A program made the translations under genes and the position numbers. A stretch of 64,000 nucleotides of DNA. Source: an uncultured bacterium. Lineage in GTDB: Bacteria > Babelota > Babeliae > Babelales > Babelaceae. The stretch's first letter is position 1, and the number at the start of each line of letters is the position of its first letter. The notes beneath the pieces were generated by a model that was not told where the DNA came from, did no database searches, and was given only the letters and a program-made list of their open reading frames with translations. Location: positions 1-64,000 of the forward strand of contig CAWKFG010000005.1 of the NCBI GenBank assembly GCA_963848965.1. The letters run 5' to 3'. Shown here one piece after another: positions 1 to 7,828 of this stretch.

Positions 1-495
1 CGCCGAGCTTTTTCGCCGCCTTGGAGTAGAACATGGTCGTCCGGAGGGGTCGAGATGACCTTCGACCGGATCCCACATGGCGCCGACGAAATTTCTCTCG
101 TCCATCAGCGGGAACATCGCCTTGGCCTCGGACGGCGTGATCAGTTCGGTGTCCATGCCGAGATAGCGGCCCTTGGCGTGGGCCAGCCGCAGGAAGTCCA
201 TGCGCTCGGGCGTATCGGCCATCATCACGCCGCCGGTCAGGTGCAGCGAGCAGGACTGGCCGGAAATCTCCTCGATCTCCTTGTAGAGCTGCACCGTATA
301 GGCCTGCAGCTTGGCGACGTTGGGATCGCCGTTCAGCGTATGGAAGCCGCCCGCCGCGTGCCAGGACGAGCCGGAGGTCAGCTCCGAACGCTCGATCAGC
401 ATGATGTCGGTCCAACCGGCCTTGGCCAGGTGGTAGAGCACCGAGCAGCCGACGACACCGCCGCCGATGACAACCGCTTTAACATGAGATTTCAT
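1..495 (-). CDS. FAD-dependent oxidoreductase, GcvT family (dimethylglycine dehydrogenase-like), 5' part; runs off the window
   Basis: Not in the ORF track. Manual translation from ATG 495 gives MKSHVKAVVIGGGVVGCSVLYHLAKAGWTDIMLIERSELTSGSSWHAAG, with a GxGxxG FAD motif and the SWHAAG signature. Confidence 0.9.
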   Translation of the reverse strand, partial: MKSHVKAVVIGGGVVGCSVLYHLAKAGWTDIMLIERSELTSGSSWHAAGGFHTLNGDPNVAKLQAYTVQLYKEIEEISGQSCSLHLTGGVMMADTPERMDFLRLAHAKGRYLGMDTELITPSEAKAMFPLMDERNFVGAMWDPVEGHLDPSGRPCSTPRRRKSSA

Positions 496-585
496 CAAGA
501 TAGGTCCTTTTTGCGTAAATTGAATCAGGTTATTGTCAGCGATAAAGCAGCGCCTCGAAACGGAGTCAACGCGCCGATATGGCGA

Positions 586-2160
586 TCAGAAATCGGTCGG
601 CGCGCCGCCTTCGGCGCGGCGCTTGTCGACGAAGTCGTTGAGTTCCTCGCGGATCGCCGGGTCGATGTAGGGTTCCTCATAGGAAGCCAGCCCCTCCTTC
701 CAGACCTTGTTTGCCTTCTTGATCGCCGTCGGCGATCCGTCTTCGCCCAGGTCTCGAAATTGCCCAGTCGGAAAGGATCGGCGAGTAGAACGCGGTCTTG
801 TAGCGGTCCTGTGTGTGCTGGGTGCCGAAGAAATGGCCCCCGGGCCGACCGACTGGATGGCGTCGAAGCCCAGCGCCTCCTCGGACAGGTCGAGCGGGGT
901 GAGGAATTCGGCCACCATCTGCAACAGGTCGATGTCCAGAATGGTCTTCTCGTAGGAGCAGCGCAGGCCGCCTTCAAGCCAGCCGGCGCCGTGCATCATC
1001 AGATTGCCGCCGCCCTGGATGGCGCCCCACAGCGAGAACACGCTTTCATAGGCTGCCTGCGCGTCGACGGTGTTGGCGGCGCAGGTGCTGGAGGTGCGGT
1101 ATGGGATCTTGTAGCGGCGGGCAAGCTGGCCGCCGACAAGTTGCGCCTTCATATATTCCGGCGTGCCGAAGGCCGGCGAACCGGACTTCATGTCGACATT
1201 GGAGGTGAAGCCGCCATAGCCGACAGTGGCGCCCTTGCGCACCATCTGAGCAAAGGCGATGCCCGACAACGCCTCGGCATTCTGCTGCACCAGCGCGCCG
1301 GCGATGGTCACCGGCGCCATGGCGCCCGACAGGGTGAAGGGCGTGACGACGACGACCTGGCCCTTGCTCGACATCTGGATGATGCCTTCCATCATCGGAA
1401 CGTCGAGTTTCAGCGGCGAATTGGTGTTGATGATGGTGAAGACGGACGGCTCTTCCAGCATCTGCTCATGGCTGATGCCGCGTGCGATCCGGGCGATCTC
1501 GATGCCGTCGACATTGCGCTCCTTGCCGAGCGAATAGATGTGAAAGACCTTGTCGGTCAGCGTGGCGAGGTCGCGGATGCATTCGAGGTGGCGCACCGAC
1601 GGGTGGATGTCGGTCGGCTCGACCGGATAGCCGCCGGTGCAGTTCAGGATGTTGTGCATCTGCGCAAGGCGCAGGAAGTTGCGGTAGTCGGCCTGGTTGC
1701 CGGGGCGGCGGCCGCGATCGAGGTCGGAGCAGTTCGGCGCCGACGCCATCATCGACAGGATCACATTGTTGCCGCCGAAGCGGACATTGTGCGCCGGGTT
1801 GCGGGCATGGATGGTGAATTCCGACGGGCAGTTCGAGATGAGATCGAGGATCATGTCGCTGTCGAAGCGCACCCGCTCACTGCCCTCGGTCACGTCAGCG
1901 CCATTTTCCTTCATGATGCGTCGCGCTTCGTCGTGAAGCACGTCGACGCCGATTTCCCTGAGCACGCGAAGCGAAGCGAGGTGGATCAATTCCAGCTCGT
2001 CGTCGGAGACCAGCTTGGTCGGCGTCAGCGGGTTTCTCAGCTGCCGGAAAGCCGGCTGCTCGAACGCGGCCGAGCCGCCGGCGCGCTTGCCCGCGCGGCC
2101 GCCGCGACGGGCGCGGTCGGTTGCCAATGCCGGTTCGGCGGGATGAAGGGCGGCGGTCAT
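586..2160 (-). CDS. mttB: Trimethylamine/glycine-betaine methyltransferase family protein (MttB superfamily)
   Basis: Likely start MTAALHPAE at 2160. Motifs NTNSPLKLD, TPFTLSGAMAPVT, GGFTSNVDMKSGSPAFGTPE, HGAGWLEGGL. Three 1-nt deletions near the C-terminus (see findings). Confidence 0.9.
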   Translation of the reverse strand: MTAALHPAEPALATDRARRGGRAGKRAGGSAAFEQPAFRQLRNPLTPTKLVSDDELELIHLASLRVLREIGVDVLHDEARRIMKENGADVTEGSERVRFDSDMILDLISNCPSEFTIHARNPAHNVRFGGNNVILSMMASAPNCSDLDRGRRPGNQADYRNFLRLAQMHNILNCTGGYPVEPTDIHPSVRHLECIRDLATLTDKVFHIYSLGKERNVDGIEIARIARGISHEQMLEEPSVFTIINTNSPLKLDVPMMEGIIQMSSKGQVVVVTPFTLSGAMAPVTIAGALVQQNAEALSGIAFAQMVRKGATVGYGGFTSNVDMKSGSPAFGTPEYMKAQLVGGQLARRYKIPYRTSSTCAANTVDAQAAYESVFSLWGAIQGGGNLMMHGAGWLEGGLRCSYEKTILDIDLLQMVAEFLTPLDLSEEALGFDAIQSVGPGAISSAPSTHRTATRPRSTRRSFPTGQFRDLGEDGSPTAIKKANKVWKEGLASYEEPYIDPAIREELNDFVDKRRAEGGAPTDF

Positions 2161-2388
2161 GACAGGCCTCATGGAATGCGAAAGTGAGCGGCATAATGGA
2201 CTGGCGGCAATGCTGCCGGTACGGAGGCGGCGACCACTAGGGCGATGGAAGCGACATGCCGGAAGGGCAGCAGGATCGTTTGACTTGGCGCAGCGGATTT
2301 GCCGGTGCGGCCCTTCCTTTTCCCGGATCGAACCGCTAGCCGGATAGCTTGCCGGCCGCAGGGTAGGCGCTTTTACAGGGATGGCAGC

Positions 2389-3564
2389 ATGGTCGCGACC
2401 GATTCGCGCGATGGCGAGGCGGCAACGCAATGGGCAGCGCTTGCCGGCGTCACTGCGGCGCTCGCCATGTTCGGCGCCGCGCAAGGGCTGAGCTATCCGC
2501 TGTTCACGCTCTTGATGCAGCGGCAAGGCATGTCGCCGGCGCTGATCGGGCTTTCCGCCGCGATGATGCCGGTTGGCCTGATTCTCTCGGCGTCGTTCGT
2601 GCCGGCTGCCGTACGGCGCTTCGGAGCGCGCAATCTCGCCGTCGGCTGTTCGCTGGCCGGCGCGGTGTGCTTCCTGGCCATCGGCTATCTGCAGGATTGG
2701 GTCGCGTGGTTCATCCTCCGCTTCCTCGTCGGCGTGGTCATCAACCCGCTCTATGTGCTTGGCGAGGTGTGGGCGCTGTCGCTGGCGCCACCGTCGCGCC
2801 GGGGCAGGGTGATGGGGGTGTTCAATGCTCTGATGGGCGCCGGCTACGCGGCGGGGCCATTGATCCTGATCACCGTCGGCGCATCTGGATGGCCTCCTTT
2901 CATCGCCGCGATTGCAGGTTTTGCGCTCTGCGCGCTGATCCTGCGCGCCGTGTCGTCGAAGCTGACCGGTTTCGAGGAGGACGGCCAGGCCTCCGGCGGC
3001 CTTGTCGGATTCGCCAGGCTGGCGCCGGCGCTGCTGCTGGCGGTGCTGGTCTCGGCGGCGGTGCAGCAAAGCACCTATGCGCTTATCCCTGTCTTCGGTA
3101 CCGGCTACGGCTTACCCGAAGCGAAGCTGGCGGCGCTGGTGACGGCGCTGTCCGCCGGCAACATACTGCTGCAGATCCCGCTTGGGCTGATGGCCGAACG
3201 CTTCGGCGGCCGGGCGATGATCGTTTTTTGCGCGTTGGCGACGGCGGCTTGCGCGCTGTCGCTGCCGGTGCTGATCACCACACCGCTGGTCTGGCCGGTG
3301 TTGGTGGTGATGGGTGCGGTCGGCTACGGCGTCTACACAATGGCGCTGGTCGAGCTTGGCAGCCGCTTCAGGGGAACAGCACTTGTCGCCGGCAATGCCG
3401 CCTTCGCGCTGATGTGGGGCGCCGGCGGCATTGTCGGACCGCCCGGCGCGGGCGCGCTGATGCAGGCGATCGGCCCGCTCGGCCTGCCGGCGGTGATCGC
3501 CGGGCTCGATGCGGTGTTGATTGCTTTCGCGCTCTACAGATCGGCTAGGCGCAGAAGCTCCTGA
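2389..3564 (+). CDS. MFS transporter (YcaD-like)
   Basis: About 12 hydrophobic segments, motif A-like AVRRFGAR and AERFGGR, and PPSRRGRVMG. Start placed at MVATDS. Confidence 0.88.
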   Translation: MVATDSRDGEAATQWAALAGVTAALAMFGAAQGLSYPLFTLLMQRQGMSPALIGLSAAMMPVGLILSASFVPAAVRRFGARNLAVGCSLAGAVCFLAIGYLQDWVAWFILRFLVGVVINPLYVLGEVWALSLAPPSRRGRVMGVFNALMGAGYAAGPLILITVGASGWPPFIAAIAGFALCALILRAVSSKLTGFEEDGQASGGLVGFARLAPALLLAVLVSAAVQQSTYALIPVFGTGYGLPEAKLAALVTALSAGNILLQIPLGLMAERFGGRAMIVFCALATAACALSLPVLITTPLVWPVLVVMGAVGYGVYTMALVELGSRFRGTALVAGNAAFALMWGAGGIVGPPGAGALMQAIGPLGLPAVIAGLDAVLIAFALYRSARRRSS

Positions 3565-3639
3565 CAGGCTTTGGCTGGAGCAAGCGGTTTTCGCCGGCGG
3601 GGCTTACGACCATTCAGGCGACCCGCTAAGGCTGCCCAC

Positions 3640-4800
3640 ATGGATTTGGCGGAAACTGGCAGAGACGAGCCGATGCAGTGGGCGGCGATCACGGGCGTGA
3701 TCGCGACCGTTTCGGTGTTCGCCATCGCGCAAGGGCTTTCCTATCCGCTGCTGAGCTTCATCCTGCAGCGCCAGGGCGTCTCGCCGGCCATGATCGGGCT
3801 TTCGGCGGCGATGACGCCGGTCGGCTTCATCCTGTCGTCGCCACTGATACCTGGCCTGGCACGGCGGTTCGGGGCAGGGCGCACGGCGCTGACCTGCGCA
3901 GCACTTTCCGCACTCGTGCTGGCGCTGATCGGCTGGACGCAGAACGTCTATCTGTGGTTTCCGCTGCGCTTCCTGATCGGCGTGGTCACCAACCCGCTCT
4001 ATGTTCTTAGTGAGATCTGGGTGATCGCACTTGCCCCACCGTCGCGGCGCGGTCGCGTCATGGGCGTCTATTCGACGATCATTTCGGCCGGCTTTGCCGC
4101 CGGTCCGCTCTGCCTGCTTGCCGTCGGCACCGAAGGCTGGCCGCCATTCCTGGTCGGCATTTGCGCTTTCATCTTCTGTGGTGCCTGCCTGGCGCTGGTG
4201 CTGCCTCGGTTGCCTAAAGTCGACGAAGCCGGGCACGGGGTTTCGGTGATGGGGTTCATGCCGCTGGCCTGGCTGCTGCTGTCGACGGTCGTCGTGGCCG
4301 CCGGCTTCGAGCAAGCGGTGTTGGCGCTGCTTCCGGTCTATGGCACCCATTACGGCATCGCCGAAGCCCGCATGTCGGCGCTGCTCTCAGTGATGATTGC
4401 CGGCAACATCGCCATGCAGGTGCCGCTCGGCCTGCTGGCGGAAAGGCTGACGGCACGCCTGGTGCGGTTCATCTGCGTGTCGCTGACCGTGCTCGGCTGC
4501 GCGCTATTGCCGCTGCTGATCGAGACGCCGCTGATCTGGCCGTGCGTCTTCATCTGGGGCGCGGTTTCCTACGGCATCTACACGATGTCGATCATCGAAC
4601 TCGGCGAGCGTTTCACCGGCTCGGCGCTGGTTGCCGGCAATGCCGCCTTCTCGCTGATGTGGGGCGTCGGCGGCATTCTCGTGCCGCCGCTCACCGGCGG
4701 CGTCATGGATGTGATCGGCGCGCCCGGCCTGCCGTTCACGCTCGGCGCTATCTGCCTGGTGCTGGCGGTGACGACCATCCTGCGTCGGCGGATGGTGTGA
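3640..4800 (+). CDS. MFS transporter, tandem paralog of 2389-3564
   Basis: Shares AQGLSYPL, IGLSAAM, NPLYVL, LAPPSRRGRVMG and LVAGNAAF.LMWG with the upstream gene. Confidence 0.88.
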   Translation: MDLAETGRDEPMQWAAITGVIATVSVFAIAQGLSYPLLSFILQRQGVSPAMIGLSAAMTPVGFILSSPLIPGLARRFGAGRTALTCAALSALVLALIGWTQNVYLWFPLRFLIGVVTNPLYVLSEIWVIALAPPSRRGRVMGVYSTIISAGFAAGPLCLLAVGTEGWPPFLVGICAFIFCGACLALVLPRLPKVDEAGHGVSVMGFMPLAWLLLSTVVVAAGFEQAVLALLPVYGTHYGIAEARMSALLSVMIAGNIAMQVPLGLLAERLTARLVRFICVSLTVLGCALLPLLIETPLIWPCVFIWGAVSYGIYTMSIIELGERFTGSALVAGNAAFSLMWGVGGILVPPLTGGVMDVIGAPGLPFTLGAICLVLAVTTILRRRMV

Positions 4801-4906
4801 ACGCAAAGCCGCTTTCGGTCGCAATGACCTTACTCCACCATCTTGAATGTGGGCGCTTGCGACGCGATGTAGGCAGGGCTGCCTGATAACGCCTTGGAGA
4901 CCGCGC

Positions 4907-5190
4907 GTGACCCAATCGACGACAAAACGCCTGAATGAATCCGCCGCCGAGGATCCGCATCTCTGGCTGGAAGACAGGACCGGCAAAGAGGCGCTCGACT
5001 GGGTGCATCGCCAGAATGAAGTGACGGTCGGCGAATTGCAGGGTGACCCGTCCTACCAGGCGGCGTTCGAAACCGCGCTCGACCTGATGACGGCCGAGGA
5101 CAACATCGCCGTCGGCGCCGCGCTCAATGGCCATGTCTACAATTTCTGGCAGGACAAGACCAATGTGCTGGGCCTCTGGCGCCGCACGAC
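4907..5190 (+). CDS. Prolyl oligopeptidase (S9A) N-terminus, truncated at the junction
   Basis: EDPHLWLED...ALDWVHRQN...YNFWQD...GLWRRTT is the typical S9A N-terminus. Homology ends where GC content collapses. Confidence 0.82.
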
Positions 5191-5195
5191 AGCCT
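5185..5195. other. Junction between two unrelated genomes (contig concatenation or chimera)
   Basis: Abrupt change from high GC to AT-rich. A gene is cut on the left and an ncRNA is cut on the right. Confidence 0.9.
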
Positions 5196-5403
5196 CGCCA
5201 ATGTTATAGAGCGGTATATATCAAGAGCACTAGCTTATACCCTCAGCTTATTTAACCCTTGAATTACAGAGCTTGGAACTGGCTTCGCATTCCAAAGTGT
5301 GATCTTTAACACTCCTCTATAACGTAGTCCTCTGCTTTCGCTTGGACTTAAGCTGGTCAACGCGAGCTTTTGCAAGCTACGTCCTTAGGACGTGGTAGTT
5401 GAC
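5191..5403 (-). ncRNA. HEARO / OMEGA (omega) RNA scaffold of an IscB-type IS200/IS605 element, 3'-truncated at the junction
   Basis: The minus strand reads GTCAACTACC-ACGTCCTAAGGACGT-AGCTTGCAAAAGCT-CGC-GTTGACCAGCTTAAG...GGACTACGTTATAGAG...GGAATGCGAAGCCAGTTCCAAGCTCTG...GGTTAAATAAG...AGTG...CTCTATAACATTGGCGAGGC. This follows the HEARO consensus order, and the stems pair. Confidence 0.88.
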
Positions 5404-5548
5404 CTCTATCTCCTAAAAATAACTATTACAAGTATATACTTACAATTTATTGTTTTATACCTTCTTAGTATATAATAAATTTTATATTTTTCACATCACC
5501 ATAAACAACTAAAGATAAAGAAAGCCAAGAGCTTTAGCTCATCGTTAT

Positions 5549-7828
5549 TCAGTTACCAAGCGATTCAAAAAACATGTCAATAATACTATGATCTAACTTA
5601 AATTCTGTGCTAGTTGAAATAGCGCCGTGATCAAGCAAGAGATGACAAACTTCTTTATGCTGCATTAAAAATGCCAGATCAAGAGGGGTAGAACCAATCT
5701 TTGTCTTGCTGTTTACGTCAGCTCCATACTGTAATAAAAGAGCAACTATATCCTTTTTGCCTGCAACAGCAGCCAATATAAGTGGTAGCAGATCTTCTTT
5801 TTTTGCTCTATTTGGATTTGCTCCTAACTCTAAAAGAAGCTTTATCCCTTCATAATGAGCCTGCATTACCATACGTTGAAGCGCGCTAATGCCGTTTTCA
5901 TCTTCAGCATCAATAGATATCCCTAACTTAATAAGAAGTTCTAAGATTTCTCGTTGATTTTGAGCAGCAGCTACTACAATAAGATAAGTAAGCTCTTTTT
6001 TTACTGCTTGGTCAAAATCATGTGTAAGCAACATGTGTGCAATCTCAGTGTGTCCTCCTGCTAAAGCAAGTATTAAAGGAGTATAATGCTCTTTTAACGT
6101 TGCACTATCAAGACGAGCCTTATTTTTTAAAAGCAACTCTACAAGCTCTTTATACTCTTTTTGTATTGCTGCATGAAGAGCAGTTGCCCCTTCTCTGGTA
6201 ATAAGGTTAACATCTGCATTATTACTCATTAAAAACGAAGCAACATCTTGTCGATTTTCAAGAACTGCACAAAATAACGGTGTATAGCCAAGAGAATCTT
6301 GGGCATTAATGTAAGCACCTTTTTCAAGTAATAATAATTTTACGATGTCTATATGCCCTTGTACTGAAGCTATATGTAAAGGGGTAGCTCGTGAATCGAT
6401 TCTATAGTTACTATCTGCTCCTCTTTTTAAAAGCAGCTCAACAATCTTTGTGTGACCTGATTGGCATGCTTGATAGAGTGCTTCATTTATATCAGTACTT
6501 CTTGTTACGTAGTTTAATAAAAGCTCAACAATTTCATAATTACCCATTTGAGCTGCAGCTCTTAGTGGAGTTACACCCTCATTATTAGTTATATGGGGAA
6601 AAGCTCGATACCGCAAAAGAAGTTCTACTATAGACTTATGCTGATTAATAACTGCTAACAATAATGCGGTTTGCCCTGCTTTTGTCTGAGCATCAACCAT
6701 AGGATAAGTCTTTAATAAGAGTTCTACTATTGAAGCATGTCCCCTATCAGTTGCCATATGTAGTGCTGTAGCTCCTTCATAGTTAGTATAGCTAACAGTT
6801 GCTCCCTGTTGAATAAGCAACTCTGCTATTGCATCATGACCTCTCTCACACGCTCCCCAAAGTGCTTGGTTTCCACTAAAGTCACGAGCATGTCCCTTGT
6901 AAGCAAGAATATTTTTTACAAGTTCAGTATATCCTTCATGAGCAGCTACACTAAGAAGAGAAAATCTAAATCTATCTTCAAAGTAGATAAGCTCTTTGTT
7001 AGATTCTAGTGCTTTTTCTACAAATGTATGATCATTATAAACTGCTGCTCTAAATATTCTTATGTAAGGATTGTCATGATCTCGTAAATATTCTTTAGAG
7101 CCTTCTTTCATCTCCCGCTGAGTCTTGATAAAGCAATCAAATTCCTTATTATTAGTAATTCCAAAGCAGTAGCAAAGAGATCGGTCTTCTATAGCACTCT
7201 CCTTTTTCATCCCTTCAAATTCTACCGTTGCAAAGCAAGCATCATCACGACCGAGCAGAATTTCTTCATAGGGCTCAAGTATAAATTCATGAGGTGTATT
7301 TTCTTCACTACTCTTTTTTATATTTAAAAAAAGTGAAACCTGACCTGAAGAATTGTTAAAAAGAGATAACATATAGAACTTATCATCTTCATCGTCGGCA
7401 ACAGATTCTTGTTTGCTTTCTGTAGATGTTTTATCAATACAGGCCGTTATAAGACCGTGTTGTACTTTATCTGTAGATACTGCTTTATTGAGCTGACTAT
7501 AAGCCTCAGAAGTAGAAGAAATCGAAACTGTATAATCCTTACTTATTTTAAAGTAGTGATCTACATGAGGCTGATTAAGGTTAAGCTCAAAATACTGATT
7601 ATTCCATTTAACGACAAGACTTATATCTTGAAAGAAAGGCAATGATCCTCCAGAACCAGCTTTAAATTTATAAGTATCTAAAGGTTCTAATTCTTCTCCT
7701 TCTTTAATAAAGAGCTCTAGAGAATAAGATGTAGGAGATTCATTGATAAAAAAGACACATCGTATGCTCGCTATAAGCTGCTCTTCAGTTGGCAAATTTA
7801 TATCGTCTATTGTAAATTTAGTTTCCAT
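5549..7828 (-). CDS. Ankyrin repeat protein (roughly 14 repeats) with an uncharacterised N-terminal region
   Basis: Repeated GxTaLHxA...Gh.eivelLL.gA.vn motifs from about aa 260 to the end. Confidence 0.92.
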   Translation of the reverse strand: METKFTIDDINLPTEEQLIASIRCVFFINESPTSYSLELFIKEGEELEPLDTYKFKAGSGGSLPFFQDISLVVKWNNQYFELNLNQPHVDHYFKISKDYTVSISSTSEAYSQLNKAVSTDKVQHGLITACIDKTSTESKQESVADDEDDKFYMLSLFNNSSGQVSLFLNIKKSSEENTPHEFILEPYEEILLGRDDACFATVEFEGMKKESAIEDRSLCYCFGITNNKEFDCFIKTQREMKEGSKEYLRDHDNPYIRIFRAAVYNDHTFVEKALESNKELIYFEDRFRFSLLSVAAHEGYTELVKNILAYKGHARDFSGNQALWGACERGHDAIAELLIQQGATVSYTNYEGATALHMATDRGHASIVELLLKTYPMVDAQTKAGQTALLLAVINQHKSIVELLLRYRAFPHITNNEGVTPLRAAAQMGNYEIVELLLNYVTRSTDINEALYQACQSGHTKIVELLLKRGADSNYRIDSRATPLHIASVQGHIDIVKLLLLEKGAYINAQDSLGYTPLFCAVLENRQDVASFLMSNNADVNLITREGATALHAAIQKEYKELVELLLKNKARLDSATLKEHYTPLILALAGGHTEIAHMLLTHDFDQAVKKELTYLIVVAAAQNQREILELLIKLGISIDAEDENGISALQRMVMQAHYEGIKLLLELGANPNRAKKEDLLPLILAAVAGKKDIVALLLQYGADVNSKTKIGSTPLDLAFLMQHKEVCHLLLDHGAISTSTEFKLDHSIIDMFFESLGN

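Follow-up and report, generated by a model that had tools for sequence, protein, structure and literature searches.

A gene-less ISC-type (IscB) element, probably split between two contigs, with a ribosome-binding site as its predicted guide

Introduction

The locus described here raises two connected questions: why an IscB-type omega RNA should stand directly beside a Shine-Dalgarno sequence, and where the rest of its element, including any iscB gene, is to be found. The DNA analysed, hereafter called the window, is a stretch of 64 kb at the start of contig C5, from an assembly of 1.73 Mb in five contigs that is 88.7% complete. A preliminary description of the window, made from its letters, had proposed that the element was inserted between a host ribosome-binding site and its start codon.

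HEARO elements have been reported to integrate just upstream of ATGA or GTGA. The N|ATGA rule applied here rests on Kapitonov et al. 2016 (PMC4810608), the available text of which describes ISC families as inserting at N|ATGA with no target duplication and as being mobilised in trans by Y1 transposases. In the available text of Meers et al. 2023 (10.1101/2023.03.14.532601), one transposon end forms a boundary of the IscB omega RNA (HEARO), with the guide just beyond it; the Geobacillus elements have the TAM TTCAT, read as ATGAA on the opposite strand, and genes upstream of such elements are preferentially co-oriented. That text also describes how the nuclease cuts the rejoined donor site, after which recombination restores the element, and how PATE-like elements, themselves gene-less, code for omega RNAs dependent on a nuclease supplied in trans; alternative boundary choice was seen experimentally in the same work.

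The omega RNA scaffold

A search of the 64-kb window with Rfam cmscan returned HEARO (RF02033) on the minus strand at 5403..5184, scoring 122.8 bits (gathering cut-off 83) with an E-value of 6.7e-25 and coverage of model positions 1-211 of 211. This was the sole match above the gathering score in the window, and the model gave no match in any of the 14 control genomes. On the minus strand the scaffold opens with GTCAAC at 5403-5398, and the 20 nt preceding it (5423-5404) read GTTATTTTTAGGAGATAGAG. Real homology to three sister HEARO copies in the same genome ends at 5191, and the 7-nt tail of the Rfam match (5190-5184) lies in foreign DNA. The scaffold consequently occupies 5191..5403 (minus strand), as the first 213 nt of a gene-less ISC-type element of 345 nt. 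Eight sequences were folded together with RNAalifold, comprising the window copy, its three sister copies and four copies from related genomes; the consensus contained 68 predicted pairs, 23 of them kept through changes on both sides, and the window copy keeps the consensus pairs up to the break at 5191.

Given the covariance-model score and the helices with compensatory changes, the window RNA is an IscB-type omega (HEARO) RNA, far beyond chance. The preliminary description had made the same identification, and the covariance-model search it suggested as a check gave a significant match. The five pairings that it named as intact are all helices of the RF02033 model alignment, the motifs GTCAAC, AGGAG and TATACT all occur where it had placed them, and 5191, which it gave as its start coordinate, is the real end of homology to the sister copies. 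Compared with RF02033, the omega RNA of OgeuIscB and its relatives (PDB 7xht and 7utn), the window copy matches at full length with all helices, and the 3' terminal hairpin common to the sister copies is present on the part that lies on contig C4. Here no HNH/IscB ORF stands behind the RNA, and the words 'Associated ORF' belong to the family name.

The foreign contig tip

The DNA on the other side of the break differs from the rest of the window. GC content is 62-68% at positions 1-5000 and 29-40% at 6001-64000, and Pfam searches showed that 1..5190 encodes an MFS transporter together with the N-terminal portion of a prolyl oligopeptidase, whose ORF is severed at the 5190|5191 join. The expectation that an iscB ORF would lie beyond this junction failed at this point, as the DNA beyond 5190 is foreign, high in GC and occupied by the severed peptidase gene. 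Contigs from four public runs of four studies (X1, X2, X3 and X5, labelled as plant, rhizosphere, soil metagenome and one organism) were compared with window positions 4200-6400. An X1 contig of 17,053 nt matches 4200-5190 with 2 differences and then diverges from the window, and contigs of X2 (three) and X3 (two) also depart from it at exactly 5190, with a similar continuation. Contigs of the four runs gave zero cover of 5191-6400, and they are informative for the high-GC side only.

Sharp-edged tips of this kind, with 57-75% GC in a genome that itself has 35-37%, were found at five of the ten contig ends; the others lie at C1 1-~10,450, C2 1-~400, C4 1-~18,740 and C5 ~121,800-128,685. The five tips are likely to be chimeric assembly ends from other (soil) bacteria. 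On the evidence of the GC jump, the severed peptidase ORF, the different continuation in three runs and the similar state of five of the ten ends, window positions 1-5190 read as a chimeric tip from another organism. The join might alternatively be biological, with transferred high-GC DNA having broken the omega RNA gene, as the deposited contig does contain the 5190|5191 join; yet half of the contig ends bear such tips, the peptidase ORF is cut at the same point, the high-GC sequence runs on differently from exactly 5190 in three other runs, and the missing part of the element was found at the end of another contig, all of which makes a biological join extremely improbable. It was also observed that the 16S rRNA gene (RF00177) was not found in the assembly, in which repeats and rRNA are apparently unassembled.

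The second half of the element on contig C4

With the first 5 kb of the window foreign, the element's other half was to be expected on another contig, and the missing 3' part was found as the last 134 bases of C4, on the minus strand. The sister copies run on after ...GGCGAGGCT with AACTTTAC and the CCCCGTAAGGGG hairpin, and the same sequence ends C4 (minus strand). In alignments to the sister element on C1, which is complete, columns 41-254 are matched by the window part, with 93% identity over 214 aligned columns, and columns 253-382 by the C4 end, with 90% identity, so that the two pieces tile with a 2-nt overlap; by this alignment the remaining 132 nt of the element are C4 872873..872742 (minus strand). 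A right end followed by ATG(A), which the preliminary description had proposed to look for, is thus present on C4, where the element stops directly before ATGAAAAGC..., the first ATG of a 97-aa DUF433 ORF (E 2e-20). This continuation is also without iscB. The scaffold's first hairpin has a counterpart close to the ATGA-side end, with 19 of 21 positions matching, and by eye the two subfamilies present in the genome differ in parallel at both hairpins, with ACGTCC..GGACGT and CGCCC..GGGCG types.

The DUF433 gene at the end of C4 (C4 872448-872741) is a partial duplicate of a DUF433 plus DUF5615 (PIN-like) pair (C4 867534-868153) that stands intact about 4.6 kb inside the same contig; the copy at the contig end has no DUF5615 gene as partner and differs in its C-terminal tail. 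The two DUF433 genes are 94% identical over 232 nt. Upstream of the intact pair lies a 56-nt block (C4 868229-868284) that is 95% identical to window 5434..5489 (minus strand), where the same block contains the only promoter-like match. As the paralogue has both the 56-nt block and the DUF433 gene, the window flank and the C4-end gene appear to be the two halves of one locus. No HEARO was found at the paralogue locus on C4. A remnant of the element end was sought in the 78 nt before the paralogue's ATG and dismissed, with local alignments scoring 10-12 against shuffle means of 8.6-11.1. The window's 5' flank was also considered as the tail of a tandem copy lying upstream, a reading dismissed on the homology of this flank to the region upstream of the paralogue.

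The assembly appears to have broken inside the element, with the first 213 nt fused artificially to foreign high-GC DNA, and with the last 134 nt and the DUF433 gene forming the end of C4, overlapping the window part by 2 nt. We hold with high confidence that window 5403..5191 and the C4 end are one gene-less ISC (IscB) element of 345 nt, of the IS200/IS605 type, with an N|ATGA target and inserted between a ribosome-binding site and its ATG; this confidence applies to the identity and architecture of the element and does not extend to its present activity. The join itself is inferred from sequence. As the genome has several similar copies and no bridging read supports the join, the C4 fragment might instead be the 3' part of a separate fifth copy, which would leave the window copy truly truncated with no ATGA-side end. 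Against this, the breaks in the two contigs fall at one and the same position of the element, overlapping by 2 nt, the C4 paralogue ties the window's 56-nt upstream block to the same DUF433 gene, and the last 10 nt of the window flank are the same as the last 10 nt of the C4-end fragment; we therefore consider a fifth copy very unlikely.

Insertion site and predicted guide

The Shine-Dalgarno sequence of the host gene, AGGAG, lies at 5410..5414 (minus strand), 6 nt (ATAGAG) before the scaffold. Genome-wide, SD-like 4-mers (GGAG, GAGG, AGGA, AAGG) peak at -12 to -9 before the starts of 972 long ORFs, with 242 occurrences at -10 and about 10 at background positions. In the unoccupied site that can be inferred for this locus, AGGA and GGAG would begin at -11 and -10 from the DUF433 ATG, in the genome-wide SD peak. 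The paralogue reads ...TCTAGGAGTTATTG before its ATG, with the same SD distance as in the window flank. The placement of the element between a host Shine-Dalgarno sequence and its start codon, as originally proposed, is supported by the C4 end adjoining the DUF433 ATGA and by the SD standing at the peak position.

The predicted guide is 5404..5419 (minus strand), placed by its position relative to the scaffold. Its length of 16 nt is assumed from characterised IscBs, which use a guide of about 16 nt; the preliminary description had proposed about 20 nt. If the flank runs into the ATG, the 16 nt beside the scaffold (5419-5404) are the SD plus spacer of the DUF433 gene, given AGGA/GGAG at -11/-10, and the predicted guide is, as far as sequence can show, a ribosome-binding site.

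The association with start codons holds beyond this copy. All four elements in the genome end directly before ATGAA, each at the first in-frame ATG of an ORF at least 97 codons long. ATGAA occurs 6443 times in the genome, and in only 494 cases (7.7%) does it supply the first ATG of an ORF with at least 90 codons; the association is therefore strong. It may arise through targeting, through a need for upstream transcription or through the survival of harmless insertions. Each of the four copies has a different 5' flank.

Upstream of the guide, on the same strand and co-oriented with the omega RNA, lies an ankyrin-repeat gene (5549..7828, minus strand; 759 aa). The TATACT box taken as -10-like in the preliminary description is present as a motif at 5436-5431 but has no acceptable -35. 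In a promoter scan, the only promoter-like site reported was GTGAAA-16-TATACT at 5494..5467, and promoter-like sites were not above chance (2, against a mean of 1.4 and sd of 1.6 in shuffles). A shared promoter region is one possibility for the AT-rich block that recurs in front of the DUF433 paralogues. A weaker copy of this TATACT-containing block (window 5434-5489) was observed at C1 369097-369153, and a stretch near it, window 5510-5568, matches a third place with 83% identity.

An empty allele was looked for among 40 relatives, none of the same genus, in which the DNA of the 5' flank had no counterpart; the search gave four weak matches (E 4e-5 to 3e-4), within the ankyrin gene part. Exact 26-mers of the DUF433 start and the 5' flank were found in 0 metagenome contigs, in a search from which records of this or near genomes may be excluded. 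The sole element-free comparison is the diverged DUF433 paralogue on C4.

The element family and its IscB

Four HEARO matches over the cut-off were found in the genome: an element of 1,583 nt with a 430-aa IscB (C4 425707..424125), one of 483 nt in which iscB is internally deleted (C4 860718..860236), one of 344 nt without iscB (C1 202084..201741), and the element without iscB that is shared by the window and the C4 end (345 nt). The 430-aa IscB of the element at C4 424125-425707 has RRXRR (2e-67) and HNH domains, is homologous to the solved IscBs TbaIscB (6e-43) and OgeuIscB (1.4e-26), and is the only RRXRR gene in the assembly. In the alignment, what we take from known motifs to be its HNH histidine and its RuvC acidic and histidine positions are occupied. 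The Y1 transposase TnpA (PF01797) gave no match in this genome, the assembly of which is 88.7% complete. The window scaffold is 80% identical to the scaffold beside iscB and belongs to a different subfamily; the differences between the two lie mostly in helices and are compensatory.

Copies in other genomes

HEARO matches over the cut-off were found in 3 of the 40 relatives, and their four copies also end before ATGA, which brings the copies ending directly before ATGA in the genome and the three relatives to 8 of 8. With the IscB protein, 26 loci were found in named genomes. IscB identity was 74% for an uncultured-bacterium MAG, at the same place as the copy in relative G002, and 48-62% for cyanobacteria, Chloroflexota, a Methanosarcinaceae MAG and others. 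Four copies in one Methanosarcinaceae MAG share sequence that stops right before ATGA. By eye, the ATGA-side ends are alike between subfamilies, with GGGGATTT, TGGAATTTTACA and GGAGGAATTTTAA types. That these ends always represent captured former flanks was rejected as a general rule, as only 1 of the 26 loci repeats its own flank.

A ten-nucleotide direct repeat

The 10 nt directly 5' of the scaffold, GGAGATAGAG (5404..5413, minus strand), recur without change as the final 10 nt of the element, just before the ATG (C4 872751..872742, minus strand). The window copy is thus flanked by a 10-nt direct repeat, unlike the ISC transposons in the available text of Kapitonov et al., which are described as having no target duplication. 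Among the 26 loci, a repeat of at least 9 nt at the element borders was found in the window copy only, and one other locus has an 8-nt repeat at an unrelated place. In 650 mismatched pairs of flanks and ends, the longest match was 9, reached three times. The sister element on C1 ends ...ACGGGGATTT, which indicates that an SD-like GGRG, equally far from the ATG, is a feature of these ends, and part of the 10-nt match may be due to SD-like sequence already present on the element end. With that part expected anyway, only about 4-6 nt remain 'extra', a weak signal once 26 loci have been compared.

Possible causes of the repeat are TnpA boundary slippage with flank capture, restoration of the host SD by a short repair patch, and chance. 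It seems improbable to us that the repeat is something other than chance, whether as a footprint of boundary slippage by TnpA or as a functional feature through which IscB with the omega RNA represses the DUF433 gene. On the slippage reading, flank would have been captured at one end and moved to the other via a circular intermediate, before re-insertion at the same site. On the functional reading, the occupied locus would keep the 10 TAM-proximal guide bases beside ATGAA, right over the SD and the start codon of the DUF433 gene, where IscB with the window omega RNA could bind without cutting and so repress the gene.

Discussion

The window element is a further instance of the known ISC elements with an N|ATGA target. 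Within the available text on ISC1-1_MA (Microcystis aeruginosa) and ISC2-1_MS (Marinobacter), it shares with them the 5' terminus GTCA, insertion directly upstream of ATGA, the lack of an own transposase and similar palindromic hairpins near both ends. Elements in this genome also share with the described ISC transposons an IscB with RRXRR and HNH domains, whereas the window copy, at 345 nt, has lost iscB entirely; those transposons are mobilised by Y1 enzymes, while no TnpA was found in this genome at 88.7% completeness. The TAM of GstIscB (ISGst), TTCAT, is the reverse complement of the ATGAA that follows all four copies here, and, going by the part of Meers et al. 2023 available, in both systems the guide is the DNA beside the scaffold, outside the element, and the upstream gene is co-oriented. 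The present element differs in belonging to a small low-GC genome of a different lineage. It has in common with the PATE-like elements of Meers et al. 2023 that it is gene-less and encodes an omega RNA, although in the text available these are discussed for TnpB. An SD-plus-spacer guide is what this literature, to the extent covered here, predicts.

A mode of action can be taken by analogy from the IscB family. The element would have inserted at N|ATGA, exactly between the SD with its spacer and the ATG of the DUF433 gene. Transcription entering from upstream would then yield an RNA with the SD and spacer, about 16 nt, as a 5' guide and the body as scaffold. If the lone IscB, encoded by the element at C4 424125-425707, binds this RNA in trans, the complex would cut the unoccupied site, consisting of the guide-matching flank followed by the ATGAA motif, and such cutting would lead to biased retention or homing of the element. 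Our literature search found no paper on a standalone HEARO RNA used by IscB in trans. A ribosome-binding site would remain available to the host gene after the insertion, since a GGAG belonging to the element itself lies at its ATGA-side end, 6 nt before the ATG.

Present-day activity of the window copy is doubtful, given that TnpA was looked for without success and that the window scaffold shares only 80% identity with the one beside iscB; with TnpA missing, excision, and with it the substrate of the nuclease, may no longer occur. We accordingly give serious weight, though somewhat short of even, to the alternative that the element is an inert fossil, mobilised long ago, no longer excised and unused by IscB, and now the structured 5' leader of the DUF433 mRNA. 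The lack of any Y1_Tnp match in the genome and the single iscB, with its own divergent scaffold, both agree with this. So does the difference of 7% between the two gene-less copies, which indicates that they are not recent, and the interrupted DUF433 gene is moreover a partial duplicate without its DUF5615 partner. Against a fossil, however, all scaffold helices are intact and the subfamily differences are largely compensatory, and TnpA or a second iscB may simply be unassembled, given that the assembly is 88.7% complete and even rRNA is missing.

The scientific value of the locus is small, as it adds one more case to a known insertion rule. ATGA-targeting IscB elements settle between a ribosome-binding site and a start codon, of which the window copy is one more instance, and their guides are for that reason ribosome-binding sites. 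In this small, reduced genome, gene-less copies that consist of an omega RNA persist alongside one nuclease gene. The locus is of more value in practice, in that the first 5,190 bases of the window and four other contig tips come from other organisms, and findings placed in high-GC tips or across their joins need checking in the same way. As a minor observation, the gene-less copy on C1 (from ~201,740 downward) stands at the start codon of a gene whose 384-aa product has an N-terminus resembling a signal peptide; several eukaryote-like C2H2 zinc-finger motifs were seen by eye in this protein, and an ankyrin-repeat gene follows.
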